DNA of 64,000 nucleotides from Corallococcus silvisoli (lineage in GTDB: Bacteria; Myxococcota; Myxococcia; Myxococcales; Myxococcaceae): the NCBI RefSeq assembly GCF_009909145.1, contig NZ_JAAAPJ010000005.1, positions 336,470 to 400,469 on the forward strand, in the 5' to 3' direction. A program made the position numbers and the translations under genes. Of this stretch, positions 3,995-17,599 are shown piece after piece (position 1 is the stretch's first letter; each line of letters begins with the position of its first letter). A model generated the notes under the pieces. The model searched no databases and was not told the origin of the DNA. It saw nothing but the letters and a program-made list of their open reading frames with translations.

Positions 3995-4867
3995 TCACTG
4001 GCACCTGCCGAAGCTGCACGTGAGCGGGAAGCCACACGTATTGCCGCAGCAGGGCCCGTTCCGGTAGCCGCAGGACTCGCAGCGGTTCGACACACCACAC
4101 CCACCCTGCACGCAGTAGGCCCCCGAGCAGCAGGTTTCACCGATGTGGCCGCAGAACAGCTGACAGGTCCCACCGCTGCACGTGAGGACCCCTGAGCAGA
4201 CCTGCCCCGGGCAGCACGTCTCGCCGTTGTAACCACAATGGGCCTGACCGCAGCCGAACAGCTCCAGCTTCCCCATGGAGACGACGACGATGCCCGCCGC
4301 CGGATCATTGTCATCCGTGATGTTCAGCCGGTACTTCAGGTAGCTTCCCGGGGACCCCACCGTATAGGTGCGGGTCTGCAGCCCGGGCCAGCCGGTCTCT
4401 CCCGAGCGCGTGTCCACCACCACCCAACCGCTGCCATTCCACCCCTCCAGCGTCCAGGCGCTGGGCGCGCGACTGGTCAGCGAGCCGTTGGCGAACGTGA
4501 TGGCGTAGCTGGTGACGAGCCGGGGCGTGAAGTCCGTCCACTCGTAGGCGATCCACGCCGGCGTTTGATAGACGGCGGAGATCCACATGCTCGTGTTGGA
4601 GCTGTCGAAGGCCTGCCAGGCCTCATACGAGGAGTCATAGGCGCCTGACCGGGTGACACTGCCGCTGGGGGCCGTCGCGCTGGTCATCGCTGGCACCAGG
4701 CTGACGGTCGTCGAACAGCTCAGCGCGGCCTCGCTCGTGGCCAGTTCGGGTATCGCCGCGGCGCTCTCCTCTAGCGGCGCTCCAGGCGAATCGGTATTTC
4801 CACAGCCAAGGGCGAACAGTGAAAGCAAGGCACTTCCCAGGACGACGATACGGCCAGGATTTCTCAT
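3995..4867 (-). CDS. Lipoprotein with a galactose-binding-like (discoidin/F5-8C-like) domain and three C-terminal 6-Cys modules
   Basis: Lipobox LFALGC. Central beta-rich region (AWTLEGWNGSGWVVVDT...YRLNITDDND). C-terminus holds three modules of CG-x5-CC-x3/4-C-x4/6-C-x4/5-C. GGAGG lies upstream of the ATG. Confidence 0.8.
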   Translation of the reverse strand: MRNPGRIVVLGSALLSLFALGCGNTDSPGAPLEESAAAIPELATSEAALSCSTTVSLVPAMTSATAPSGSVTRSGAYDSSYEAWQAFDSSNTSMWISAVYQTPAWIAYEWTDFTPRLVTSYAITFANGSLTSRAPSAWTLEGWNGSGWVVVDTRSGETGWPGLQTRTYTVGSPGSYLKYRLNITDDNDPAAGIVVVSMGKLELFGCGQAHCGYNGETCCPGQVCSGVLTCSGGTCQLFCGHIGETCCSGAYCVQGGCGVSNRCESCGYRNGPCCGNTCGFPLTCSFGRCQ

Positions 4868-5097: not shown

Positions 5098-5318
5098 CGC
5101 CAATGCGAGAAGCGTCGGGTGCCCCCATCCGCGATAAAAGCCGGCGAGCCAGACTGTATTCTAGTCGATACTCGGCGGGAGCGCGTCCATGAGCAGCCCG
5201 TGTATGAGGCATGCTGCTGGCGGGTCGGTATTGCCCGTCCAGGTTGGTGTTTGGATTGGAAGTCGAGCGCCTGGATTTGAGGGGGAGCCGTTGCGCGCCA
5301 TCCGAGATCGGGTGCTAC

Positions 5319-6671
5319 ATGAAAACCTGGATTCGCTTCCTGGGGAGTCGCGCCACTCAACTCCGGCAGACGGTGCTGGGAGCCCTCCAAGGCTCGGGCC
5401 TCGAGATGGTGTCGCGCCCGGAGGAAGCTCCCCCTGGCCTCGGAGTGATTGTCTTCGATGAAGTGGAAGCGAACACGCTGGAAGCCGTGCGGGACTGCCG
5501 GCTGAGCCCTTCGACACGGGTCCTCGCGGTGGCCACGACGGGCCAGGGACTCGGTGAAGGGGCTTGCTGGCGGCTGCTTCAGGCGGGAGCCTCGGACGTG
5601 CTCGTCTGGGAGGGCGCGCGTGACGCGGCGGCGGAGATCGCCGCACGGCTGGAGCGCTGGCACCAGGTGGAGCGGCTCATCGAGTCGCCCGCCGTGCAAC
5701 GGCGCCTGGTGGGCCGGGCCGCCACCTGGCTCCCGGTGCTGCGCCAGCTCGTGGAGGTGGCCGCGTTCACTGACGCCTCGGTGCTGCTGCTCGGGGAGAG
5801 CGGCACCGGCAAGGAGGAGATGGCCTGTCTCATCCACGAGCTGGACATGCGCCCGGACAAGCGGGAGCTGGTGACGCTGGACTGTACGACGGTGGTGCCG
5901 GAGCTGTCGGGCAGCGAGTTCTTCGGGCATGAGCGGGGCGCCTTCACGGGAGCGACGAACACCCGAGACGGGGCCTTCGCCCTGGCCCATGGCGGGACGC
6001 TGTTCCTGGACGAGGTGGGCGAGCTGCCCCTGGCCCTCCAGGCTCAGTTGCTGCGGGTGGTGCAGGAGCGTCTGTACAAGCGCGTGGGCTCCAACACCTG
6101 GCAGCGGACGGACTTCCGGCTCGTCTGCGCCACCAACCGCGAGCTGTCCCAGCAGGTCGCCCAGGGCGGCTTCCGCCGCGACTTCTTCCACCGCATCCTG
6201 AGCTGGGTGTGCCGGCTCCCGCCCCTGCGCGAGCGACCCGAGGACATCCTCCCGCTGGCCCAGCACTTCCTCCGGTCGATGCGACCCGACATGGCGCTCG
6301 AGCTGGATCCCCACGTGCGGGAGTACCTCCTCAAGCGCAGCTACCCGGGAAACATCCGGGAGCTGCGTCAGCTCATCGGGCGCCTCTGCAAGCGGCACGT
6401 GGGCACCGGGCCCATCACCGTGGGCGACATTCCCCCCGACGAGCTCCCTTCCTCCGAAGGGCTCGGGGACTGGCAGGACGTCTCGTTCGCGCAGGCCATC
6501 CAGCGCGCCCTGTCGCTCGGGGTGGGGCTCAAGGAGATTGGCCGGAGCGCCTCGGACACGGCCATCCGGCTGGCCCTCGCCGAGGAGCAGGGCAACCTCC
6601 AACGCGCCGCCCGGCGGCTGGGCGTCACGGACCGCGCGCTCCAGCTCCGCCGGGCCCAGCGCGACGAATAG
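5319..6671 (+). CDS. Sigma-54-dependent transcriptional activator (NtrC family) with a degenerate receiver-like N-terminus
   Basis: AAA+ Walker A GESGTGKE, the sigma-54 contact motif GAFTGA, and a C-terminal Fis-type HTH (GNLQRAARRLGVTDRALQ). The N-terminal ~120 aa is receiver-like but lacks the acidic pair and the conserved Lys. Confidence 0.9.
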   Translation: MKTWIRFLGSRATQLRQTVLGALQGSGLEMVSRPEEAPPGLGVIVFDEVEANTLEAVRDCRLSPSTRVLAVATTGQGLGEGACWRLLQAGASDVLVWEGARDAAAEIAARLERWHQVERLIESPAVQRRLVGRAATWLPVLRQLVEVAAFTDASVLLLGESGTGKEEMACLIHELDMRPDKRELVTLDCTTVVPELSGSEFFGHERGAFTGATNTRDGAFALAHGGTLFLDEVGELPLALQAQLLRVVQERLYKRVGSNTWQRTDFRLVCATNRELSQQVAQGGFRRDFFHRILSWVCRLPPLRERPEDILPLAQHFLRSMRPDMALELDPHVREYLLKRSYPGNIRELRQLIGRLCKRHVGTGPITVGDIPPDELPSSEGLGDWQDVSFAQAIQRALSLGVGLKEIGRSASDTAIRLALAEEQGNLQRAARRLGVTDRALQLRRAQRDE

Positions 6672-6685
6672 CCGGAGTCATCGCC

Positions 6686-7522
6686 TCAGCATCCGCCGCC
6701 TCGGAGCGCATCGGGGGTCCAGGGGTCTCGCGGCTCTTCCTCCACCGAGGGGGCCGGGCCCTTCCAGGCAGACCTCCGCCCCAAGGGCCTTGGGCGGCAC
6801 CGGCCCATCAATCGCAGCAGGTTGCCCCCCAACACGAGCTGCCGGTCCTTCGGAGACAGCTCCAGCGCGAGCACCTTGGCCAGCTCCACCCCCGGGTGCA
6901 GCCACGGGCCATCCGAGCCGAAGAGCAGCTTGTGTGCCCCGGCCCGCTCCACCGCCTCCTCCAGCAGGTCGAAGCGGCGCACCCCAGCGGTGTCGGCGTG
7001 GACGTTGGGCAGGCGCGCCAGGAGGTCCAACAGCGCGCGCTGCGCTCGCCAGTCGTCCGCGAAGCTGCCCAGGTGCGGGATGATGAAGCTCACCTCCGGG
7101 TACTCGGTGGCGATCAACTCCACACCGGAGACTTCTCCCATCACGTCGTAGAGGATGGGCAGCGCGAAGGCCCGGGCCACCTCGCAGATCTCACGGGAGA
7201 TGCGCGCGTCGTAGCGGTGGACCTTGATGCCCCGGAAGCCGTAGCGCCGCACGGCCTCCTGGACCCGCTCGAAGACGCGCCCGCGGTCTCTCACGGCATG
7301 CACGAAGGCGAAGCCGTAGAAGCGCTCCGGGTGGCGTTTCACGAGGCGGGCCACCTGGCGATTCGCCGTGGCGTAGTCGGAGTGGAACGCGGCCAGCAGC
7401 ACCGTGCGGGAGATGCCCGCGGCGGACGCGCGCCGCAGGTAGTCCTCCAGCGGCGCGGAGGTGTCCCAGGGGCCGGTGAGCCCGTCGCCCTTCCCGGCAT
7501 GGCAATGGCAGTCGATGATCAT
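6686..7522 (-). CDS. Amidohydrolase-2 family metal-dependent hydrolase (operon gene F)
   Basis: Starts MIIDCHCH (HxH metal motif). Also GIKVH, IIPHLG and LLFGSDGPW, typical of TIM-barrel amidohydrolases. The track ORF 6686-7657 is trimmed to ATG 7522, 7 nt after the stop of gene E. Confidence 0.85.
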   Translation of the reverse strand: MIIDCHCHAGKGDGLTGPWDTSAPLEDYLRRASAAGISRTVLLAAFHSDYATANRQVARLVKRHPERFYGFAFVHAVRDRGRVFERVQEAVRRYGFRGIKVHRYDARISREICEVARAFALPILYDVMGEVSGVELIATEYPEVSFIIPHLGSFADDWRAQRALLDLLARLPNVHADTAGVRRFDLLEEAVERAGAHKLLFGSDGPWLHPGVELAKVLALELSPKDRQLVLGGNLLRLMGRCRPRPLGRRSAWKGPAPSVEEEPRDPWTPDALRGGGC

Positions 7523-7529
7523 CGTCGCG

Positions 7530-8516
7530 TCATCGGCGCTCGAACAGCTCGTAGAGCGCCTTGTCGGGGAGCGAGAGCGCGCGGTTGGCGATGCCAGGCG
7601 CCTTGGCGGCCCGGACGCCCCATGGATTCGGCGGGAGCAAGCCCTGGATGGAGACACCTCCTCTCACGCGGAACTGCCGGATGGAGCTCAGGTTGCGAAG
7701 GCGGCCCGCGGGGACGGCTCCAGAGAGCAGGAGCGCGCGGATCAGCGCATGCTCCACCGCCCTGCGAGCCTGTCGGGTGTTGGGCTGAATCGTCCCGAAC
7801 CAGACCGTGATGGGCTTGGGCAGCAGCCCCCCCTTCTGGGTGAGCCCCATCTGGTAGAGGCTCAGCAGGCGTCCTCGCCAGCGCCCCTGGAAGCTGTCCG
7901 TCTCGCCCACGTAGAGGGGAAGCCCCTCCTCCTCCACGACGTACAAGCCACCTCCGGCGGGAAGCGCGGAGAACGGGTGGCGATCAATCTTCCGCACCGA
8001 CCAGGAGAGGACCTTCGCGGTGACGGGGCCCCGCTGTGCCTCGAGCTCCTGCGACTCCGCGGGAGGGGGCCCGTCCTGCCCGGGCGGAGCGTCCGAGGGT
8101 TCCTCGGGAGGCGCCACATCCGGCGGCGGCTGCGCCGCGGCCACCGGCTCGACGCTGTCGGGAGGGGGCTCGTTCAGGGCCGGCTGGTAGAGCGGGTAGC
8201 CGTACGGCCCTCCGCCGTAGACCACCCAGGGGCGGCCCCTCGGCCACCGCCGCCCCGGCCTCGGCCCCTGCCCCTGCCCCTGCCCCTGCCCGGGGCTCCG
8301 CCACGCACGGGCCGGTCTCGAACCCGAACGCCAGACCTGCGCCCGGGGGACGCCCATCATCCCGCGTCCGACCCCGAACCGCCTCGCGCCGGGCTGGAGT
8401 GCACGAGCGCGGCGCGCAGGTGGCGCACGGAAGGACCGCGCGAAGTGGCCCTCCTCTTCGCCTTCCCACTCGGACTCCAACGCGTCTTCGCTCTCGTTCT
8501 CGTACCACTCATTCAT
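7530..8516 (-). CDS. Hypothetical protein: acidic head, Arg-rich/GQ-repeat segment, Pro-rich linker, GIY-YIG-like C-terminal domain (operon gene E)
   Basis: N-terminus MNEWYENESEDALESEWEGEEEG, followed by about 18 Arg with no acidic residues. The C-terminal half contains GLYVVEEEGLPLYVGETDSFQGRWRGRL...AVEHALI, resembling GIY-x8-YxG-R...E. Start overlaps the gene D stop (ATGAATGA). Confidence 0.75.
   Translation of the reverse strand: MNEWYENESEDALESEWEGEEEGHFARSFRAPPARRARALQPGARRFGVGRGMMGVPRAQVWRSGSRPARAWRSPGQGQGQGQGPRPGRRWPRGRPWVVYGGGPYGYPLYQPALNEPPPDSVEPVAAAQPPPDVAPPEEPSDAPPGQDGPPPAESQELEAQRGPVTAKVLSWSVRKIDRHPFSALPAGGGLYVVEEEGLPLYVGETDSFQGRWRGRLLSLYQMGLTQKGGLLPKPITVWFGTIQPNTRQARRAVEHALIRALLLSGAVPAGRLRNLSSIRQFRVRGGVSIQGLLPPNPWGVRAAKAPGIANRALSLPDKALYELFERR
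8265..8291 (-). repeat. Hexanucleotide tandem repeat (cccctg x4.5) encoding (GQ)4
   Basis: Read directly from the sequence. In frame within gene E. Confidence 0.9.
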
Positions 8517-9594
8517 GACGTGTCCTCCGCTGCTGCCTTCCGTCGACGGCTTCCACCAGCGCCTCCACTGCGTGAGTCAGCTCCTCCGCGCCGTGCCGCG
8601 CGGTGAGGATGAAGCTCACCGACACCTCCGGACCGCAGCGCGAGCGCTGGAGCACGGTCCGGATGCCACGCCGGTGCAGCCGCTCGTGGACCGCTCGCGG
8701 GTTCACCCCGCGAGGAAGCTGGATCCGCTGCACCGGGAACCGCCCGCCCACCGAGGCCAACCCCGACCGCCGCAGCCGCCCCCGGAAGTGCGCCACCCGC
8801 AGCGCCAGCGCCTCCCGGAGCGCGTCGCCTTTCCGGCGATTGATGGCCACCGCGTGCTCGGCGGCATGGAGATCCGCCACCGAAGGTGGACTGCAATGCA
8901 TCCGCGTCTCGCTGCGCTCCTCGTACCTGGCCACCACCCGCGCGCCGCCGGCCATCAGCGCCATCGGCACACCCAAGGCCTTCGCCATCGAGCCGCACCA
9001 CAGGACATCTGGCCCGTGGATGCCGTACCAGCGCAGCGAACCCCCTCCGCCGGCTCCGTATGGCAGGCCGGGCCCCGGCATGCCGAACACTCCCAAGGCT
9101 TGGGTGTCGTCCAGGATGAGCAGGCCCCCATGGGCCCGGACCACCTCCAGGTACGCGTCGAGCGGCGCCAGCGCGCCGCAGCCCGGACACCAACCGTCGC
9201 AGACCACCACCGGCCGGAGCCCCTGGCGCGGCGCCCGTGCCAGGAGCCTCGCCAGGGCCTCGGGCGAATGATGGGGAAAGCTCCTCACGGGTCCGCCGCG
9301 CGCCACCACCCGCTCGAACCCCCACCGCACCACCGGGTAGCTGCCTTCATCCCAGTAGAGGGCCACGGGGCGCCCCGCGAGCGCTCCGAACACGTCCCAG
9401 AACAGGTGCAGCGTGGAGCGGGCGAACAGCCCCCGCTCGCAGCCCACCAGCTCCGCCAGGGCGCGTGACGTCTCTTGCGTTCCGGGGGGCTCCTCGAGGA
9501 TGGCCGGAGTGCCCAGGGTGAGCCGCTCCCACGGCGCGAGCGATCCGCTGGAGTGCTCCAGGCCCAGGTAGAGCGCGGAGGTGAAGTCGAGCAC
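8509..9594 (-). CDS. 8-amino-7-oxononanoate synthase-like PLP-dependent acyltransferase, divergent active site (operon gene D)
   Basis: N-terminal LDFTSALYLGLEHS (compare DFxSNDYLGL). DDTQALGVFG stands where the family has DDAHGxG. Lys is retained in GSMAKALG. GTG start with GGGGGA 9 nt upstream. Confidence 0.8.
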   Translation of the reverse strand: MLDFTSALYLGLEHSSGSLAPWERLTLGTPAILEEPPGTQETSRALAELVGCERGLFARSTLHLFWDVFGALAGRPVALYWDEGSYPVVRWGFERVVARGGPVRSFPHHSPEALARLLARAPRQGLRPVVVCDGWCPGCGALAPLDAYLEVVRAHGGLLILDDTQALGVFGMPGPGLPYGAGGGGSLRWYGIHGPDVLWCGSMAKALGVPMALMAGGARVVARYEERSETRMHCSPPSVADLHAAEHAVAINRRKGDALREALALRVAHFRGRLRRSGLASVGGRFPVQRIQLPRGVNPRAVHERLHRRGIRTVLQRSRCGPEVSVSFILTARHGAEELTHAVEALVEAVDGRQQRRTRHE

Positions 9595-9609: not shown

Positions 9610-11466
9610 TCACCGCCTCCGCTGCAGGGCCAGCCGGTTGCGCAGGTGCACCGAGGGGGACACGTAGCGCTCCGCCAGGCGCTGCTGGTCGGTGATGTCG
9701 ACCGCGAGGTCCACGCCGGTGACGGCCCGGTACGCGTGGATGTAGCCCTGGATCTCCGGCCGCCAGTAGCGCGCCCAGTTGGCGGCCTGGTTCGGGTCGT
9801 TCGTGATGCTCCACGCGCCGTAGCGCACGGCCAGGAGCACCTGCTCGCCGTAGACGGCGAGGTCGTGGAAGTGCACCACGCTGACGTCCGTCCACCCCAG
9901 GAGCGACTTCATCGCATCCACCCGGTCCATCCACGGCTCCGGGTAGGGCACCATCACCCGCCCGCCGAGGAACTCGCGCATCTCCGGGCGCGACAGCAGC
10001 CACTGCTGCATCAGCATCTCCTGGCGCGCGGTGGAGGGCATGTCTCCGAACTGGTTATGGGCCCCCTGCGCCAGCAGGTAGTGCGTCTCCTTGAGCGAGT
10101 TGAGCACCGGGAAGCCGTCCGACACCACGGTGGTGTCATCGTCCTGCCGGAAGAACTGCACGCATTGGTGGAGCAGGTTGTGGAAGGACTCGAGGAACTT
10201 CGAGCGCCGATCCGCGGTGCGCATCCCGGACACGGCCTTGCCGTGCAGCGTGAAGCCATATTCGTGGTCGTACTCGTGGGCGCGGCGCACGACGCTCAGC
10301 CGGTGCTGCTCGTCCTGGAGGTAGCCCCACAACACGTTGTTGAGGGGCCGCAGCGGATCGATCTCCATGTTCGCCAGCGGATCCCGGTCCCCGGGCCCGC
10401 GCACGTTCTGGAAGCGATTGCTGATGTAGTTCATCGCCTGGACCAGCATTCCCTCCTCGTGCCAGTAGTTCCAGATGAGCTCCAGGAAGGTGGGGTAGCC
10501 CAGCTTCTGCTGGAGGATGCCGTAGCAAGCGGCGTAGTCGTCCTCCGGAATGTTCCGAGGCGCGATGACCGGCACGTCGGGGAGCTTGTTGCGGATGATC
10601 GCCAGGTAGGGGAGCGCGACATCGGCGCTTCCGTTCACATCCTCCAGGTAGTGCTTCCACACGACCTCGAAGTCGAAATCGCGAGGAAGCGTCTGGCCGA
10701 GGCGACCGCCCTCCACGCGCGCGTCCAGCTTGTCCAGCAGCTCCGTGAAGTCCACCAGCACGCCCGTGCGCTCCAGCATGAAGGCCTCGGTCAGGGCCTT
10801 CAGCTTCCGGTAGGCATCCACGCCAGGGAATGGCAGCCGGAGCTTGGGCTTGCGGATCGGGGTCGGCCTGCCCGGGCCCGGCAGGCCCGTGCCCGGGTCC
10901 GTCATGTGGTCGGGCGGGCAGAGGTGTGCGTCGATGAACCGGCTGTATTGATCGAAGGAGAGCCAATCGGTGGTCTTGCGGATGACCATCCAGAGGATGA
11001 CGTCGGTCGTCAGCGGATGAAGGGTGCGCTGCAGCGCCACGGGGAGGACAGGCATGCGTCCAGCCGCGCCGAAGGAGTTGAGCTCGTTGAGCGCTTCGCG
11101 CACCACCTCCCGGACGTTCCTGTCGCCCTCTCCCGGGAGGAGGGTCAGCGACTGTTCGGCTTCCCAGGTGAACGCGGGCCTGGTGGAGCCCGCCCCTTCG
11201 AACTCCTCGAGGATGACCTTGGCCTTGAGGACGCCCGCGCGCCTCGAGCTGGGAATCGTCCAGGTCGCGTGGCCATTGAGCTCCTGCCTGTCCGCGCTGG
11301 ACTTGGAGACCGGGGGTTCGACGCTGCCGGCCTCCACGGACCATCTGTAGACCCGATGCGTGAGCTTCGGGTTCACGTGGACGGGGGACGCCGACAGTTC
11401 GACGGTGGCACCCGAAGCGCTCGAGGTGACGGTGGTGGGTGAGAGAGTGAGTGTGACGCCAGCCAT
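9610..11466 (-). CDS. Large hypothetical protein, 618 aa, no recognisable domain (operon gene C)
   Basis: High GC3. ATG 11466 is preceded by GGAGGA (the track ORF starts at TTG 11481). N-terminal ~110 aa is beta-rich, followed by a long helical region (FLELIWNYWHEEGMLVQAMNYISNRF, HEYDHEYGF). Confidence 0.8.
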   Translation of the reverse strand: MAGVTLTLSPTTVTSSASGATVELSASPVHVNPKLTHRVYRWSVEAGSVEPPVSKSSADRQELNGHATWTIPSSRRAGVLKAKVILEEFEGAGSTRPAFTWEAEQSLTLLPGEGDRNVREVVREALNELNSFGAAGRMPVLPVALQRTLHPLTTDVILWMVIRKTTDWLSFDQYSRFIDAHLCPPDHMTDPGTGLPGPGRPTPIRKPKLRLPFPGVDAYRKLKALTEAFMLERTGVLVDFTELLDKLDARVEGGRLGQTLPRDFDFEVVWKHYLEDVNGSADVALPYLAIIRNKLPDVPVIAPRNIPEDDYAACYGILQQKLGYPTFLELIWNYWHEEGMLVQAMNYISNRFQNVRGPGDRDPLANMEIDPLRPLNNVLWGYLQDEQHRLSVVRRAHEYDHEYGFTLHGKAVSGMRTADRRSKFLESFHNLLHQCVQFFRQDDDTTVVSDGFPVLNSLKETHYLLAQGAHNQFGDMPSTARQEMLMQQWLLSRPEMREFLGGRVMVPYPEPWMDRVDAMKSLLGWTDVSVVHFHDLAVYGEQVLLAVRYGAWSITNDPNQAANWARYWRPEIQGYIHAYRAVTGVDLAVDITDQQRLAERYVSPSVHLRNRLALQRRR

Positions 11467-11483
11467 GATTCCATCCTCCAACG

Positions 11484-12827
11484 CTAGGTGACGACGTTCC
11501 GCGGCAACGCGGGAGCCCGGAGCACCGACGCCAGGGTCCGCGACTTCGAGAGTGACGCGCAGGTCTCGGACGCATCGAGCGTGCTGCGCAGGGCCCAGTA
11601 CTTGAGGAGCTCGGCCAGGGCCTTGCTCTCCTCCTCGGGAGTGATGGCCCCGTCGGCCCTGGCCTGCCCGATGACGGCGAACACCAGCGAGGGCGGCGAC
11701 TCACGAATGCGGGAGCGCCGGGCGCGCCACTCCCGGTACAGCTCGGAGAGCCGGTCTGGCTGACGCTCCCGCGTCTTCATGACCTCCACCAGCGTGCGTC
11801 CACGAAGGGACTCCGGCCGGTGCTCCACCAGGAGCCGCGCGATGCGCGGCAGGCTCGCCTCGAGCGCGCCGAGCACCCGGCGGTGCTGCTCGGACAGTCC
11901 GTCGATGGGGTAGAACGCCTTCCACAGTCGCGCCAGCCGCGCCCACTGCGGATGCGGATACAGCAGTCCGCCCAGCGCGCTGCTCAGCTTGACGCGGATC
12001 CACGGGATGGGATGGGGGTCGTCCATGTTCAGCCGGAACACGAACGGCCGCGGCAGGCTCACCACCCCCATCAGCCCCACCGTGGCGGTCACCCCCACGC
12101 GAGCCACCGACCAGAAATCCGCGACGACCTCCGAGATCCACCGCTCCCACAGGCCCCAGACCAGCGCGTCCTCGGGCCCTTCACGCGGCACGTCGCGCAG
12201 GGCCACGCGGAGCGAGGCCACCAGGTCCAGCAGCGCCGCCCCCTGGTGCCCCACCTCGTGGAAGAGGGAGGACGCGAGGCTGCTGCCGATCATCCGCTCG
12301 CGGGGGACGCGGATGATGGCCACCGGGTTCGCCCCGCCGCCGGGCAGACGCGTGCGCGCCCGGCGGATGGCCGCTCCGGGGCCGCGAGCCAGGTAGCAGA
12401 TGACGGGCGGCGCCTCGTAGTACCCCGGCAGCTCCAGCGCGTTCTTGGAGAGCACGTCCAGCCCCGCCAGCCAGACGCCGTTGTCCGCCTCGCTGCGCTG
12501 GCTCATGGCCTCGCTGAAGATGTCGAACTGCGACAGCACCACGTTGAAGCGCAGCCGCAGGAAGGTGAAGCGCCGCTGCGCCTCGGCGGGGGCCGCGTGT
12601 CGGCCCCAGGGGCCCTCCAACCACGCGAGGTACTGGTGGATCTGCGTCCGTAGCTCACGGCGCCCCTTGACCAGGTAGCTCTCCAACGCCGCCTGCGCTT
12701 CGACGGAGAGCGTGGCCGCTGGGACCATCGTCTCCGACATGGCGAAGGACTTGATGCGCTCGAGCCGGGTGAGCAGCGCGCGGGCCTCCTGTGACAGCAT
12801 CCAGGAGGCGAAGGAGCCGGAGGACAT
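11484..12827 (-). CDS. Hypothetical protein with a single HExxH zinc-metalloprotease motif (operon gene B)
   Basis: SLFHEVGHQGAALLDL is the only recognisable motif. Starts 6 nt after the gene A stop. Confidence 0.75.
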   Translation of the reverse strand: MSSGSFASWMLSQEARALLTRLERIKSFAMSETMVPAATLSVEAQAALESYLVKGRRELRTQIHQYLAWLEGPWGRHAAPAEAQRRFTFLRLRFNVVLSQFDIFSEAMSQRSEADNGVWLAGLDVLSKNALELPGYYEAPPVICYLARGPGAAIRRARTRLPGGGANPVAIIRVPRERMIGSSLASSLFHEVGHQGAALLDLVASLRVALRDVPREGPEDALVWGLWERWISEVVADFWSVARVGVTATVGLMGVVSLPRPFVFRLNMDDPHPIPWIRVKLSSALGGLLYPHPQWARLARLWKAFYPIDGLSEQHRRVLGALEASLPRIARLLVEHRPESLRGRTLVEVMKTRERQPDRLSELYREWRARRSRIRESPPSLVFAVIGQARADGAITPEEESKALAELLKYWALRSTLDASETCASLSKSRTLASVLRAPALPRNVVT

Positions 12828-12833
12828 GGTGGC

Positions 12834-13463
12834 TCAGACCCCGTAGAGGATGATCTTGTTGCCCTTGCGCACCCAGCGGCCACTGCGGCCACCGGTGCCC
12901 GCGGCGTGCGGCATCTGGGCGGCGAAGCCAGGGGCGAACTTCTGGATGGCCTGGTGGACGGCGGCGCCAGCCACCTGCTGGGGCGAAGCATTGTCGGGCG
13001 AGTTGAGGGCCGTCTTGGAGGCGTCCGAGGCGAGTCGGACAATCTGCCGGGCCACCTCGAACTCGCGGTCCTCCTGGCTCAGGCCCTCCAGTTCGAGCCC
13101 GAACGCCTGGCCCGCCATGGAGGCCAGCTTGCCACCGACGGCGCCGCCCACGCCGGGGACCACGAGGTTGCCGAGCGCGCTGCCCACCATCGGCAGGGCC
13201 TGCCTGGCCAGTCCCTTGAGCATGCCCCCGAGCTGCTTGCCCAGCGGAGACTTCACGACCTTGCCGACGGCGCTGCCCACCTTCTTGATGATGTTGCCGA
13301 GGAACTGATCCAGCTCCTGCTCGTTGCTGACCTCCAGCAGCTCCGAGGCGAGCTCGTTCAGCTCGTTCTCGTTGAAGACCTCGCCCCACTCCGACTCGGC
13401 GTTGAACTCGAACTCGAACGACTCCCCCTCCAGTTCCTGGTAGGTGCGATCCACGTCATGCAT
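12834..13463 (-). CDS. 209-aa protein with an acidic head and a cationic Gly/Lys-rich core (operon gene A)
   Basis: ATG 13463 preceded by GAGGAA. The track ORF 12834-13712 is trimmed because its upstream part is Arg/Pro/Ala-rich junk. Residues 1-54 carry 15 Glu, 3 Asp and 1 Arg. Residues 55-122 carry 7 Lys, 1 Arg, 16 Gly and no acidic residues. C-terminus is GRWVRKGNKIILYGV. Confidence 0.8.
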   Translation of the reverse strand: MHDVDRTYQELEGESFEFEFNAESEWGEVFNENELNELASELLEVSNEQELDQFLGNIIKKVGSAVGKVVKSPLGKQLGGMLKGLARQALPMVGSALGNLVVPGVGGAVGGKLASMAGQAFGLELEGLSQEDREFEVARQIVRLASDASKTALNSPDNASPQQVAGAAVHQAIQKFAPGFAAQMPHAAGTGGRSGRWVRKGNKIILYGV

Positions 13464-13520: not shown

Positions 13521-13536
13521 AGCAGCGGCTGTGCCA
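13521..13536 (-). promoter_or_regulatory. Sigma-54 (-24/-12) promoter candidate for the six-gene operon
   Basis: Minus strand reads TGGCACAGCCGCTGCT against the consensus TGGCACG-N4-TTGCW. GG and GC have correct spacing. The -12 element is about 58 nt upstream of ATG 13463. No other correctly placed TGGCAC/GC pair was found in the window. Confidence 0.6.
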
Positions 13537-13639: not shown

Positions 13640-13766
13640 CCCCGTCATGGCCCCGTGGGCTCCGGGCGAGTCCCCCCCCTGGCGAGGGCATTCGTCCCCT
13701 CGCCGTCGCCATTCGCGGGGCCGTCGGCTAGCGTTCGGCCCTCTCCGCGGAACAAGAGGGGGGCCC

Positions 13767-16040
13767 ATGCGCGTCGTACCGTCCATCCTGGAATCCGTCA
13801 CCGTTCACGCCGAAGGCGCGCTGTGCACCCGCGCGCTCGTGCTCTCCCCCGAGGACGGGCACCTGCCCGAACAGGTCCGCGTCGACGGCCTGCCCCTGGC
13901 CCTGCGAACAGCGACCCTGCGCGCCCGCGTGGTGGAGGGCCCCACCGGGCTCCTCGTCCGCGACCTGCGGCCCACGTTCGACGTGCGGCTGCCCGCCGAA
14001 TCGGACCTGCCCGCGGAGCTGCACGCGGCCGAAGCGGCGGAGGCCGCGCTGTCGGACGTGCTGGGCCGGCTGGAGCGGGTGCGCGCGGAGCTGGAGACCC
14101 TTCAGGGACTGGCGCCCTCCTTCCCGCCCCAGCGCAAGGGCCAGCTCCCGCGCGAGGCGCCCCTCGCCGCGATGCTGGCGCTGACGGGCTTCGTGGACGC
14201 GGAGCTGACGGCGCTGCATGCCCAGCGGCTGGAGCTGGAGCGGCAGTACCGCGACGCCACCCAAGAGCTGGAGCTGCGCCGCCGCCGCGTCCAGGAGCTG
14301 TCCTCCGCGCGAAGCGTGGACCGGGCCCGGCTCTTCCGCGCGGCCCTCCTCACGCTGTCCGGCCCCATCGCCGCGAACGCGGAGGCGCGCCTGGTGTTGG
14401 AGTACGCCGTGGCGGGCGCGCGATGGGTGCCCACCTACGACCTGCGCCTGCCGCGCACGCTGGAGGAAGGCACGCTGCGCATGCGTGCCGCCGTCATCCA
14501 GCGGACCGGCGAGGACTGGAAGGGGGTCCGGCTGTCGGTCTCCACCGCGAGCCTGGAGCGGCGCGCGGTGGTGCCGGAGCTGAAGTCGCTGCGCATCGGC
14601 CGCAGCCAGCCGGCGCCCGTGCGCTCGGGATGGCGTGAGCCCGCGCCGGGCCTGGACGAGCTGTTCGCGGGCTACGACGCCATGACGGTGCCGCCCCCTC
14701 TCGCGATGCCCGAGCCTCTTCCGCCCCCTCCGATGGACGAGCTGGACGCGGATGAGGACTCGTTCGGGAGCGTGGTGGCCTTCGAGGAGTCCTTGAAGGA
14801 GAAGTCGCCGAAGGCGATGTCGTCCTCGTATGGGGGCGCGCCGGGCGCTCCGCCCATGGCGCCCCCTTCCGTCTCCCGGCCCGCGCCGCCGCCCATGCCG
14901 GCTCCCAAGGCCGCGGCCCCCGCGCTGGGCGGAGTCCGCCCGTCGGCGGCCCCGAGCCGGAACCTCAGCGACGGCGGAGACCTCAGCCGGAGTTTCCGGC
15001 GGGATGCCCCGGGCCGGGGCGGCGGCGGGATGAGCAAGAAGCGCGCGGCCGAGGAGGAGAGCCTCGATGATGCCCCGATGATGGACCTGTCATCGGACCT
15101 CTCGGACGGCGAGGGCGGCGGCGGGGAGTCGCGGCGCACGAGGGCCCTGGAGCCCGCGGACAGCCTGTTCGACTACGACTCGCTGACGCTGGCCCCTCCG
15201 GGCGCTCCAGCCGAGCGCGGCCGGCTGACGCCCCGGCCGGCGCTCATCACGCAGGCGAGGCTGTCCGTCACTTCCGTGAGTCTCCAGGTCGAAGTGGTGC
15301 GCCTGGAGGCCCAGGCCTTCGTCACCGCCGAGTCCGTGAACACCGTGCCGCCGCCCACGTGGGCGGTGGCGCCGCGCGACTCCGCCCGGCACTTCGACGC
15401 GCGCTTCGACGCGGAGGCGGTCGCGGACGTGCCCGCCGACGGCGCGTGGCACACGGTGCCCATGCTGACGGTGCCCCTGGAGTTCCGCGCCGAATACGTC
15501 TGCGTGCCTTCGGTGGAGCCGCGGGTCTTCCGCACGGTGCGCCTGGACAATCGGACACCGCACCCGCTGCTCGCGGGGCCCGTGGACGTGACGCTCGGGG
15601 ATGAGTTCCTGATGACCTCTCCGCTGCCCACGCTCGGGCCCGGCGAGACGCAGCGGCTGGGATTGGGCGTGGAGGAAGCGATCCAGGTGGCGCGCAACAC
15701 GCGCTTCGAGGAAGCGACGGGCGGCATGTTCGGCAACAACACCGTCCTCACGCACCACGTCTCCGTGGAGGTGACCAACCACCTCGCGCGTCCCGCGACG
15801 CTCGCCATCTCCGAGCGCATCGGCGCGGTGCCCGAGTCCCAGAAGGACCTCAAGGTCGAGGAGGCGGAGGTCATCCCGCCCTGGCAGAAGCCCACGCCCC
15901 TGCCCGGAGAGGTCGCGGTGGAGGGCGAGCGGGTCTGGCGCATGAGCATGCCCGCCGGAGAGAAGCGTTCGATGAAGGCGACATGGGTCGTGAAGCTGCC
16001 CGGCAACAAGATGCTGTACGGCGGGAACCGGAGGACATGA
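13767..16040 (+). CDS. DUF4139 (mucoidy inhibitor MuiA-like) family protein with a ~150-aa Pro/Ala/Gly-rich insertion
   Basis: Hallmark ARWVPTYDLRLP...AAVIQRTGEDWKGVRLSVSTAS. ATG 13767 preceded by AAGAGGGGGG. Low-complexity insertion at about 14640-15190. Confidence 0.8.
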   Translation: MRVVPSILESVTVHAEGALCTRALVLSPEDGHLPEQVRVDGLPLALRTATLRARVVEGPTGLLVRDLRPTFDVRLPAESDLPAELHAAEAAEAALSDVLGRLERVRAELETLQGLAPSFPPQRKGQLPREAPLAAMLALTGFVDAELTALHAQRLELERQYRDATQELELRRRRVQELSSARSVDRARLFRAALLTLSGPIAANAEARLVLEYAVAGARWVPTYDLRLPRTLEEGTLRMRAAVIQRTGEDWKGVRLSVSTASLERRAVVPELKSLRIGRSQPAPVRSGWREPAPGLDELFAGYDAMTVPPPLAMPEPLPPPPMDELDADEDSFGSVVAFEESLKEKSPKAMSSSYGGAPGAPPMAPPSVSRPAPPPMPAPKAAAPALGGVRPSAAPSRNLSDGGDLSRSFRRDAPGRGGGGMSKKRAAEEESLDDAPMMDLSSDLSDGEGGGGESRRTRALEPADSLFDYDSLTLAPPGAPAERGRLTPRPALITQARLSVTSVSLQVEVVRLEAQAFVTAESVNTVPPPTWAVAPRDSARHFDARFDAEAVADVPADGAWHTVPMLTVPLEFRAEYVCVPSVEPRVFRTVRLDNRTPHPLLAGPVDVTLGDEFLMTSPLPTLGPGETQRLGLGVEEAIQVARNTRFEEATGGMFGNNTVLTHHVSVEVTNHLARPATLAISERIGAVPESQKDLKVEEAEVIPPWQKPTPLPGEVAVEGERVWRMSMPAGEKRSMKATWVVKLPGNKMLYGGNRRT

Positions 16041-17599
16041 TGCGCACTTCCATTCTGTTGCCCCTGGTCAAGGTGACGGTCCTGGAGGACCGGGCCCTCA
16101 TCGAGCGCACCGGCGAGGTGACGCTGCCTCCGGGCCCGTGCCGCCTCGCGGTGGACGGCCTGCCGGCGGTGGCCGTGGACCGCTCGCTTCAAGCGAAGCT
16201 CTCAGGTGGCGTGGTGACCCAGGCCAGCCTGCGCCGCTCGATGCGCGCGGTGCTCCCGGAGGCCCTGCGCGAACACGCCACGGAGCTGGCCCGCCGCGCC
16301 TTCGAGCGCGAGCAGGAGCTGGAGCGCGCGCAGGCGGAGGTCGGTCGCCTGGAGACGCGGCGCGACCTGCTGGAGGCCGCGCGGACCGAGGTCTTCCGCG
16401 CCATCAGCGAGCGCACCGGCGCGGGCGAGGCGGATCCGACGCGCTGGAAGGAACAGCTCGAAACGCTGCGCAAGGAGCAGGCCGCGACGGACGACACGCT
16501 CTGGCAGGCCCGGCGCTCCGCGGCGCGCCTCCAACGCCAGCATGAGCAGGAGACCCGCGAGGTGCTGGCGCGCACGGCTCCCGCCGAGCCCACGGTGGAC
16601 GTGCGCGCGGAGCTGGACGTGAGCCACGCGACGGGCGGGCCGGTGACGTTGACGCTGACGTACCTGGTGCCCTGCGCCGCATGGCGGCCCGCGTATCGCG
16701 CGGCCCTGAGCCTCGCGGACGAGGGCTCGACGGTGGCGTTGGAGTGCGAGGCCGTCGTCTGGCAGAACACGGGCGAGGCCTGGAAGGACGTGACGCTGGC
16801 CTTCTCCACGGCGCGCCCCACGCTGGGTGCCACGCCCCCCAGGCTCGAGGAGGACTGGCTGTCCCTGCGGGACAAGACAGCGCGAGAGAAGCAGGTGGTG
16901 GAGGTCTCCGTCCGCGAGGAGTCCATCCAGACGACCGGCGAGGCCGGGACCTCGAAGGCCGCGGATGCGCTGCCCGGCATGGACGACGGCGGAGCGCCGG
17001 TGACGCTGTCCACGCCCCACAAGGTCACGGTGCCGTCGGACGGCGAGGCGCACCGCGTGGCGCTGTTCGCGTTCACGGCGCCCGCGACGTCGGAGCTGGT
17101 GGCCTGCCCGGAGCAGTCGCCGCTGGTGCACCGGGTGGCGCGGTTCGCCAACACGGGGCCGACGGTGCTGATGGCCGGGCCGGTGGACCTGGTGCGCTCG
17201 AAGGGCTACGTGGGCCGCGCGCAGCTCAAGTTCGCGGGCCGGGGCGAGCGCGTGAAGCTGGGCTTCGGCAGCGAGGACTCGCTGCGCGTGTCACGGCAGG
17301 CGGAGTCGAGCGAGGAGGTCGCGCGCATCACCAGCCGGCGCACGAACACGGAGCGGGTGAAGCTGTTCGTCTCCAACATGGGGGCGATGCCGGCGAACCT
17401 GGTGGTGGAGGAGCGCATGCCGGTGTCCGAGGTGGAGGCCGTGGAGGTGGCGCTGCTCAAGGACGCCACGAAGCCCGCGCCCACGAAGGTGAGCGACGAC
17501 GGCATCGTGCGCTTCGAGTTGAACGTCCCGCCGCGCTCCCGGCAGACGGTGTCCTTCGGCTTCACGGTGGCCCGCTCCGGGAAGGTCTCGGGCCTGTAG
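16037..17599 (+). CDS. DUF4139 (MuiA-like) family protein, paralog of the upstream gene
   Basis: AAWRPAYRAALSL...AVVWQNTGEAWKDVTLAFSTARP. Its ATG overlaps the upstream TGA (ATGA). Confidence 0.8.
   Translation: MMRTSILLPLVKVTVLEDRALIERTGEVTLPPGPCRLAVDGLPAVAVDRSLQAKLSGGVVTQASLRRSMRAVLPEALREHATELARRAFEREQELERAQAEVGRLETRRDLLEAARTEVFRAISERTGAGEADPTRWKEQLETLRKEQAATDDTLWQARRSAARLQRQHEQETREVLARTAPAEPTVDVRAELDVSHATGGPVTLTLTYLVPCAAWRPAYRAALSLADEGSTVALECEAVVWQNTGEAWKDVTLAFSTARPTLGATPPRLEEDWLSLRDKTAREKQVVEVSVREESIQTTGEAGTSKAADALPGMDDGGAPVTLSTPHKVTVPSDGEAHRVALFAFTAPATSELVACPEQSPLVHRVARFANTGPTVLMAGPVDLVRSKGYVGRAQLKFAGRGERVKLGFGSEDSLRVSRQAESSEEVARITSRRTNTERVKLFVSNMGAMPANLVVEERMPVSEVEAVEVALLKDATKPAPTKVSDDGIVRFELNVPPRSRQTVSFGFTVARSGKVSGL

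Follow-up and report, generated by a model that had tools for sequence, protein, structure and literature searches.

A probable GIY-YIG-fold protein with an acidic head in a widespread bacterial gene cassette

The cassette at the locus and across genomes

A stretch of 64,000 nucleotides (nt) from Corallococcus silvisoli (contig NZ_JAAAPJ010000005.1, positions 336,470 to 400,469), referred to here as the window and with a G+C content of about 70%, contains six tightly packed minus-strand genes, A to F. The fifth of these, gene E, is the subject of this work. Its product is very probably a divergent GIY-YIG-fold protein with an intact set of active-site residues, and it begins with a strongly acidic N-terminal segment, called the head below. 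The start codon of gene E is well supported by an 8-nt overlap with the gene D stop (ATGAATGA) and by a GGAGGA 6 nt upstream. Gene F probably starts at MIIDCH, 8 nt past the gene E stop codon. The family assignments come from D and F: gene D matches Pfam Aminotran_1_2 at 1.1e-09, with bioF, Kbl, and CqsA-like NCBIfam matches below threshold, and gene F matches PF04909 at 4.6e-23. PADLOC, NCBIfam, and Pfam return nothing for A, B, C, and E. The features are collected in Table 1.

The cassette is found far beyond the myxobacteria. A search of GTDB species genomes with gene C gave 530 confirmed stretches in Myxococcota, Acidobacteriota, Chloroflexota, Nitrospirota, Methylomirabilota, Planctomycetota, Verrucomicrobiota, and many Burkholderiales, and a search of a plasmid collection gave 4 matches, all unannotated. 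Gene content was counted in 80 loci fetched from among the 530 stretches; B is found in 77, A in 74 (often in two or three copies), D in 64, and F in 53. A profile hidden Markov model (HMM) of the C-terminal domain of E matches an open reading frame (ORF) in 29 of the 80 loci, in every case (29/29) on the same strand and between C and F. The order A-B-C-D-E-F followed by a sigma-54 enhancer-binding protein gene is kept for E homologues at 87% and 37% identity, gene E lies at the same place in L001, L002, and L003, and the same arrangement holds for three distant representatives (P0157, P0182, and P0218). Gene E is a regular, positional, and translationally coupled component of a widespread cassette. 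No paper on this cassette or its motifs was found in the literature.

The candidate promoter upstream of gene A is the sole match, at one mismatch, to TGGCAC-N5-TTGCW in the whole window, and a scan of the operon found no sigma-70-like promoter or intrinsic terminator. Elsewhere, sigma-54-type sites lie 56-83 nt upstream of 12 of 62 genes for A proteins of the MHD type, against a background of 0.013 per 300 nt. A sigma-54 enhancer-binding protein adjoins the cassette in L001, L002, L085, L087, and L089. In the window, transcription of the cassette appears to start at a sigma-54 promoter ahead of gene A, and the cassette is probably dependent on sigma-54.

Proteins B and C are conserved across great distances. 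B is a putative zinc metallopeptidase, with the columns H190-E191-x-x-H194, E233, and D237 invariant in 27 sequences from many phyla. In protein C the C-terminal ~330 residues are very strongly conserved, with about 55% identity across phyla, and C has no relatives in Pfam, NCBIfam, PADLOC, or PDB. Sequence and profile searches of PDB gave nothing credible for either protein, and loose Pfam scans of 27-28 members of each gave scattered noise.

Table 1. Features of the cassette and its surroundings in the window
Feature	Position	Strand	Remarks
Gene A	12834-13463	minus	209 amino acids (aa); no family; start MHDVDRT at 13463
Acidic head of A, residues 1-57	13293-13463	minus	ESEW at residues 23-26 (13386-13397)
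Candidate sigma-54-type -24/-12 promoter TGGCACAGCCGCTGCT	13521-13536	minus	~58 nt upstream of the gene A ATG
Gene B	11484-12827	minus	447 aa; no family
Gene C	9610-11481	minus	~618-623 aa; no family
Gene D	8509-9594	minus	361 aa; pyridoxal phosphate (PLP)-dependent, BioF/Kbl (alpha-oxoamine synthase) type
Gene E	7530-8516	minus	328 aa plus stop; direct family scan empty
Acidic head of E, residues 1-23, MNEWYENESEDALESEWEGEEEG	8448-8516	minus	ESEW at residues 14-17 (8466-8477)
Cationic disordered tract of E, residues 24-100	8217-8447	minus	contains (GQ)4 (8268-8291) and R-x-R-P-W-V-V (8220-8240)
Tyr/Gly/Pro segment, then acidic Pro/Glu/Asp-rich linker of E, residues 101-160	8037-8216	minus	charge blocks -2, -4, -5; predicted disordered
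GIY-YIG-like domain of E, residues 161-328	7533-8036	minus	core ~186-276 (7689-7961)
Gene F	6686-7522	minus	278 aa; Amidohydro_2 metal-dependent hydrolase
Sigma-54 enhancer-binding protein	5211-6671	plus	convergent with the operon 3' end; Pfam Sigma54_activat 2.2e-53

The C-terminal domain of protein E

An earlier sequence-only reading of this locus saw a GIY-YIG-like core in the C-terminal half of E, and profile and structure comparisons bear this out. A word-index homologue search with full-length E returned 4 proteins, the low-complexity N-terminal half having probably crowded the candidate list. A HMMER profile of the C-terminal 172 residues reached 117 cluster representatives, of which 113 were aligned; these relatives span 19-98% identity to E. 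Most representatives carry G-[ILV]-Y...P-[IL]-Y-V-G, and W172, G190, Y192, P200, Y202, G204, R212, E255, R260, N275, and P295 are each at least 90% conserved over the 113 sequences. The putative catalytic residues are Y192, Y202, R212, E255, and N275, the last two falling within an E-x-x-[LI]-I...N pattern; they include the Arg and the Glu expected of the superfamily. The motif claimed earlier is present, with one correction: nine residues, not eight, separate G190-L-Y192 from Y202-V-G204, giving the GLY-x9-YVG spacing of UvrC.

Assignment by profile and by fold converge on the same superfamily. A direct NCBIfam scan of protein E gave no match. The best PDB profile match of the domain is the GIY-YIG domain of Thermotoga UvrC (E = 0.008), and the likeness to this N-terminal UvrC domain (PDB 1ycz, 1yd0-1yd6) runs over PxxxG-[VL]-Y-x9-Y-[IV]-G-x7-R. 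The alignment pairs Y192, Y202, and R212 of E with Y19, Y29, and R39 of UvrC, in register over GIY, YIG, and the Arg. PF01541 is matched by 21 of the 113 relatives at E <= 0.01 (best 2.7e-05), and no other family recurs as often. Because E itself misses the Pfam threshold while these relatives match PF01541, membership is at the level of the superfamily, by way of intermediates and fold. An AlphaFold model of residues 157-328, built on the 113 sequences, has a predicted local distance difference test score (pLDDT) of 91.6 and a predicted template modeling score (pTM) of 0.87; it has the alpha/beta GIY-YIG fold, with an additional N-terminal beta-hairpin and a C-terminal extension of ~50 residues. 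In a Foldseek search of PDB, the top eight matches of this model are all UvrC GIY-YIG domains. In the viral fold library BFVD, the named matches are GIY-YIG endonucleases, all of them weak (best E-value 0.012).

The domain is closest to UvrC by sequence and to phage T4 endonuclease II (EndoII) by fold, and it differs from both types of enzyme in what surrounds it. A UvrB-interaction region like that of UvrC and Cho is absent from protein E, and so is the RNase H-like or helix-hairpin-helix (HhH) C-terminal half of UvrC. It has instead a 160-residue disordered N-terminal region along with the extra hairpin and extension, and its genomic context is entirely different from that of UvrC. The Glu-to-Asn spacing is 20 residues in E and about 12 in UvrC. 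Identity to T4 endonuclease II, I-TevI, Eco29kI, and Hpy188I is 10-20%. Protein E lacks the DNA-recognition modules of the homing and restriction enzymes, and Pfam detects in it no NUMOD, IENR1, or helix-turn-helix (HTH) module of the kind found in I-TevI-type homing endonucleases. It is also not associated with a phage or an intron, and its position in the operon is fixed.

Members of the E family vary in what is joined to the domain. Some are fused to PG_binding_1, Peptidase_M74, or PLA2 domains. A subgroup has another N terminus, MW(T/K/N)T.DGY.L.L..., which replaces the acidic head. Members of this MWTTxDGY type are P0167, P0176, P0181, P0186, P0190, P0193, P0200, P0208, P0216, P0218, P0230, and P0237, together with the ORF at 15705-16409 of L077, and at least two lie within cassettes (L085 and L077). 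The profile also matched, in five stretches, P0211, a long repeat protein of 1179 aa with GDFNFTD(V/I)E(G/S)D...VNDVPVA units. Low complexity or repeats almost certainly account for this spurious match, and P0211 was rejected as a member of the family.

Acidic heads and the slot between D and F

Protein E opens with its acidic aromatic head. A disordered tract rich in Arg comes next, then a Tyr/Pro/Gly segment and a Pro-rich acidic linker, and the GIY-YIG-like domain forms the C-terminal part. The composition reported in the earlier reading was counted correctly: the head of 23 residues has 10 Glu and 1 Asp, and residues 24-100 have 18 Arg, no Lys, and no Asp or Glu, the next acidic residue being E116. 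The net charge is -9 and then +16 over residues 21-100. In a full-length AlphaFold model, built on 5 sequences with a pLDDT of 52.8 and superseded by the domain model on 113 sequences, residues 1-153 have pLDDT <50 and are predicted to be disordered. The (GQ)4 noted earlier within the tract starts at residue 76 and is encoded by a GGGCAG hexanucleotide repeat. The repeat is unstable rather than conserved, as an orthologue at 87% identity (P0001) reads QGPAQGQGPRQG at this position.

Among 58 full-length E-family members, 20 have a short motif, R-R-(x)-P-W-[IV]-[FLY], within the basic tract and 20-95 residues from the N terminus; besides that in the window (8220-8240), examples are found in P0125, P0143, P0148, P0149, P0151, and P0154. 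The R-R-P-W-I-F-like form resembles the twin-arginine translocation (Tat) signal, but no hydrophobic h-region follows the motif, and a Tat reading was rejected; the highest 19-residue Kyte-Doolittle mean in E, 1.19, falls within the domain. In Corallococcus exercitus (L009:11896-12195), the interval from C to F has no D gene and holds only a stub of ~80 aa, MRPWYELSEELETEGEGELRGGRRVGGFRYRALRRRGYPWMLG...RWPWLRYLRSWPY, with an E-type head, a basic tract, and an RWPWL motif and without the GIY-YIG domain. This stub is either a remnant or a stand-alone head peptide.

Protein A also begins with an acidic head. It is 100% identical to the RefSeq entry 'MULTISPECIES: hypothetical protein [Corallococcus]', has >1,760 homologues, and holds FNAESEWGEVFNENE. 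The extreme N terminus, MHDIDRT, is conserved, and heads across phyla take the form MHDIDRT..E..FE.E.FEFGQGEWSGE.... A Lys/Gly-rich amphipathic segment follows the head, the net charge changing from -16 to +7. A reading of the ELDQFLG-x of A as a double-glycine leader, after the consensus of such leaders, was dropped: the cassette has neither a C39 peptidase nor a transporter, and Asp often occupies position -1.

A-like sequences occur in additional settings. In Burkholderiales cassettes (for example L018:13432-14118, L028, L030, and L062), a third A-like paralogue, with a Cys-containing head, MHASNCNCPTCRQARETFFEPETFDDEF...ELLSVTSEAEMDQFLG, separates the E-type gene from F. These cassettes also have an extra A-like gene upstream of the MHD-type A. 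In Sorangium, proteins divergent from the cassette (L005, minus strand near 7160; L007, minus strand near 7316) have an A-like start, ..RTYQEPEGESFHYEFEDEPFHYEFEGEPL.., followed by long KPKPKP/GQGTKP repeats, an arrangement of an acidic head and a strongly cationic low-complexity tract.

The sequence-only reading took the tetrapeptide ESEW, found in the heads of both A and E, as the sign of a shared tag. The tetrapeptide is indeed in both heads, but its sharing does not exceed chance and it is not conserved. When the two heads are shuffled with their composition preserved, 20% of the shuffles have some tetrapeptide in common. Orthologues of E read ESER (at 87% identity), EQEF, EPEL, or EAEW at this position, and ESEW is present in only 4 of the 120 closest A homologues, 28 of which have a Trp in that column. 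Homology of the two heads was also considered and rejected. An HMM of 99 A heads, which have the general form MHDIDRT...FEFE...ELAxELLxVxNExELDQFLG, is negative for E of the window, and the claim is therefore limited to shared short motifs and does not extend to a common ancestry of the heads. Among 120 E-family sequences, this HMM matches only P0144 (8.9e-12) and P0218 (5.7e-08). As judged by profile, the head of E is a distinct, E-type head with only short motifs in common with A.

A looser motif fares better. In 151 unique A heads, Glu precedes Trp in 52 of 66 cases, compared with 17.6 +/- 3.9 in shuffles. EWx[GEQ] occurs 47 times in A heads (7.1 +/- 2.7 expected) and 43 times in E-type N-terminal regions (7.7 +/- 2.9 expected). 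Across the 80 genomes, EW[x]?[GS]E is found 47 times in ORFs on the cassette strand. The remaining ORF sequence of these loci, nearly threefold larger, has it 4 times; these rates of 0.91 and 0.03 per 10,000 aa correspond to an enrichment of about 30-fold in the cassette, with related sequences included in the counts. E-type proteins of Janthinobacterium and PG-binding proteins of Nitrospira both have the string EWEGE(V/R). On these counts, ESEW is a chance-level local form of a real, looser motif, E-W-x-G/S-E.

The acidic aromatic character of the head is kept in E orthologues, the myxobacterial ones starting with MxEW[YH]E and those of Burkholderiales with MNExFExLPF; 19 of 33 E-type ORFs strictly match MxxxFExLxF or MxEW[YH]E at their start. 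Burkholderiales heads read MNEAFEMLPF...EGEWEGEWEGEWESEWEGER and then RGG-rich sequence, and they contain (EGEW)n elements. The E-type protein of Janthinobacterium lividum (L078) has MNEAFEMLPF...EQEWSGEWSQEWSQE...EGEWEGEWEGEWESEWEGER, then an R/G-rich tract, a Y/P-rich segment, an acidic linker, and the GIY-YIG-like domain. Compared in this way, the head in the window, MNEWYENE...ESEWEGEEEG, reads plainly as a variant of the Burkholderiales E-type head.

In other taxa the E-type slot, between D and F, holds muramidases, amidases, M23 and trypsin-like peptidases, and phospholipase D (PLD), all of them head-bearing. A head element of the form [FL]-x-F-E-x-E-P-F has 11 plus-strand occurrences, all 11 within 9 kb downstream of C. 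Those tested among the proteins with this FExEPF head carry Pfam domains common in lytic or antibacterial enzymes, which place them among trypsin-like peptidases and combinations of PG_binding_1 with PLD, PG_binding_1 with muramidase and Amidase_2, DUF2272 with VanY, PG_binding_1 with M23, and Amidase_2 with GIY-YIG. The N termini inspected among the slot proteins are acidic and not Sec-like.

Two proteins combine A-type and E-type parts. In P0144 (254 aa), an A-type head, MHDLDRTFERTHREAATFEFTGESEFTGEYGETQEIFHEAELDEL, is joined directly to the E domain, and a sigma-54-type site lies 61 nt upstream of its start. P0218 (653 aa) fills the D-F slot of a complete cassette and has an A-like ELLSVTSEAELDLFLG helix and a Gly/Ala-rich amphipathic region of ~300 residues, then the E domain. 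The two fusions speak for a joint function of A modules and the E domain.

The surroundings of the cassette include genes of other kinds. Two adjacent DUF4139/DUF4140 paralogues (13647-16040 and 15983-17599, both on the plus strand) are divergent from gene A, and the same pair also flanks the cassette in a related Corallococcus contig (L001). An ORF at 175-2532 on the plus strand, unrelated to gene E, resembles 5'-nucleotidases and metallophosphatases and has a tandem PDAG(M/T/R)PD(A/S)G repeat (~800-950) near its N terminus. At 3995-4867 on the minus strand lies a gene for a 290-aa protein that is predicted to be secreted and has a C-terminal Cys-rich triple repeat (CG..GE.CC.G..C).

A recognition or pro-region tag and its alternatives

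Taken together, these comparisons favor, if by a modest margin over doubt, a reading in which E is a GIY-YIG nuclease bearing an acidic N-terminal recognition or pro-region tag that is used across the cassette. That the head is a functional tag common to cassette proteins we hold to be somewhat probable. The idea of a shared tag put forward in the sequence-only reading is plausible and has comparative support: the acidic aromatic head is conserved, EWxGE is specific to the cassette, and there are two A-E fusions, although ESEW itself is neither significant nor conserved. The putative tag comprises a start of the type F/Y-E-x-E/L-P-F and E-W-x-G/S-E elements, and it is not private to A and E. 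It would mark the interchangeable proteins of the D-F slot, that is, GIY-YIG nucleases, muramidases, amidases, M23 or trypsin-like peptidases, and phospholipase D, and related elements would mark the Gly-rich amphipathic protein A.

In such a mechanism the head would be a handle recognized by a conserved partner in the cassette, for which B, with its invariant HExxH...E, is the best candidate. The negative charge of the head could mask the cationic tract next to it for as long as the head is neither removed nor engaged; the charge pattern suggests auto-inhibition of this sort. Once unmasked, the cationic tract and the GIY-YIG domain would bind and cut nucleic acid. Removal of the head by B is a doubtful part of this scheme. 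In antimicrobial-peptide precursors, anionic pro-regions neutralize the cationic mature part, and the acidic block directly before a basic block in A and E is similar. The cationic part of E differs from these in being an Arg-rich disordered linker ahead of an enzyme domain, and processing is here only proposed.

Several observations weigh against the tag and nuclease reading. Protein E has no Pfam family at E <= 0.1 and hence lies below the PF01541 threshold, and the A-head HMM does not report E of the window even at E <= 10. The head motifs are short and lie within compositionally biased sequence, and the EW motif is present in only 39 of the 151 A heads, about one-quarter. The inclusion of related sequences in the enrichment counts overstates their independence; the motif recurs nonetheless across phyla and across protein families. 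Many E-family representatives have no acidic head or have the MWTTxDGY module. B has no relatives in Pfam, NCBIfam, PADLOC, or PDB and no detectable kinship with any known peptidase family. The cassette A-F shows no sign of an immunity gene, transporter, or membrane protein, and the cell-wall enzymes of the slot have no signal peptides with which to reach their substrate.

The main alternative, to which we give appreciable but clearly lower weight, is that E acts as an antibacterial toxin, secreted or released, within a polymorphic-effector system, with the head as an export or packaging signal and A as a membrane-permeabilizing, holin-like or bacteriocin-like component. As in polymorphic toxins and bacteriocin effectors, one slot is filled with varied enzymatic C-terminal domains behind a common N-terminal tag. 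The range of slot enzymes fits well with this, from muramidase with amidase, M23, VanY, trypsin-like peptidase, and PLD to an amidase fused to GIY-YIG, all with acidic heads and none with a Sec-like N terminus, as do the E-family fusions to PG_binding_1, Peptidase_M74, and PLA2 and the Lys/Gly-rich amphipathic segment behind the A head. GIY-YIG is also listed among the nuclease domains of polymorphic toxins (PMC3482391). The tag in the cassette is, however, a short acidic linear motif and not a folded Rhs, PAAR, LXG, or MAFB domain. No adjacent immunity gene or known secretion system was recognized; the neighbor 8 nt downstream of E is the Amidohydro_2 enzyme, the slot is polymorphic in content but gave no immunity candidate, and no known trafficking domain was found. 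No transporter, ATPase, or outer-membrane component was recognized in the cassette, and no transmembrane segment is predicted in A-F, where the highest 19-residue Kyte-Doolittle mean is 1.56. Proteins A, B, C, D, and F match no toxin-delivery system in Pfam, NCBIfam, or PADLOC, the latter two giving nothing for E either, and D and F are metabolic-type enzymes with no obvious export role. Less probable than export is that the likeness of the heads is purely compositional, with acidic disordered N termini having arisen for unrelated reasons such as solubility or charge balance and ESEW being a coincidence. The shuffling result, the lack of conservation of ESEW in E orthologues and A homologues, the failure of the A-head HMM on E of the window, and the predicted disorder of the heads are what this would lead one to expect. 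Against it stand the excess of Trp after Glu in A heads, the enrichment of EW[x][GS]E on the cassette strand, the recurrence of EWEGE(V/R) in two kinds of protein, the conserved extreme N termini (MNExFE in E-type proteins, MHDIDRT in A), and the fusions P0144 and P0218.

Two further explanations concern the domain itself. There is a small chance that it is catalytically dead and serves as a scaffold that binds nucleic acid or a partner protein, with the Arg-rich tract doing the work. The domain is too divergent for Pfam in protein E, it has the extra N-terminal hairpin and C-terminal extension, and in some relatives it is fused to cell-wall enzymes; against a dead scaffold, the Tyr, Tyr, Arg, Glu, and Asn are each at least 90% conserved among relatives as distant as 19% identity, the pattern expected of an active enzyme. 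Least credible of all is that E is a selfish GIY-YIG homing endonuclease like I-TevI, or a repair nuclease like UvrC or Cho, that lies in the operon by chance. Its fold does match I-TevI, UvrC, and phage GIY-YIG endonucleases. Gene E nevertheless keeps a fixed place between D and F across phyla, in 29 of 29 loci and in 5 metagenomic contexts, and it is translationally coupled to D. Pfam finds no NUMOD, IENR1, UvrB-binding, RNase H-like, or HhH modules, the similarity to phage enzymes in BFVD is weak, and a family-specific disordered N-terminal region is conserved. Given the motif statistics and a synteny that is fixed, neither a purely compositional coincidence nor a mobile homing endonuclease is likely.

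Protein E extends the GIY-YIG superfamily to a subfamily that Pfam misses in protein E, with an unusual conserved N-terminal region that is disordered and blocky (acidic, Arg-rich, Tyr/Pro, acidic). It leads to a cassette found in hundreds of species in which the most conserved proteins, B and C, lack a family assignment, and in which a variable slot holds lytic or toxic enzymes with a common N-terminal tag and without signal peptides. The cassette around E may be something new. As a tentative proposal, it could be a previously undescribed sigma-54-dependent system of many phyla in which an acidic tag marks destructive enzymes, A carries related elements, and B and C handle the tagged proteins, offering a new route to activate or release signal-less lytic effectors for antagonism or programmed lysis. 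If the tag is a recognition or pro-region signal, it would represent a new bacterial way to control or deliver destructive enzymes, and the tag would provide a simple sequence rule for finding the cargo.

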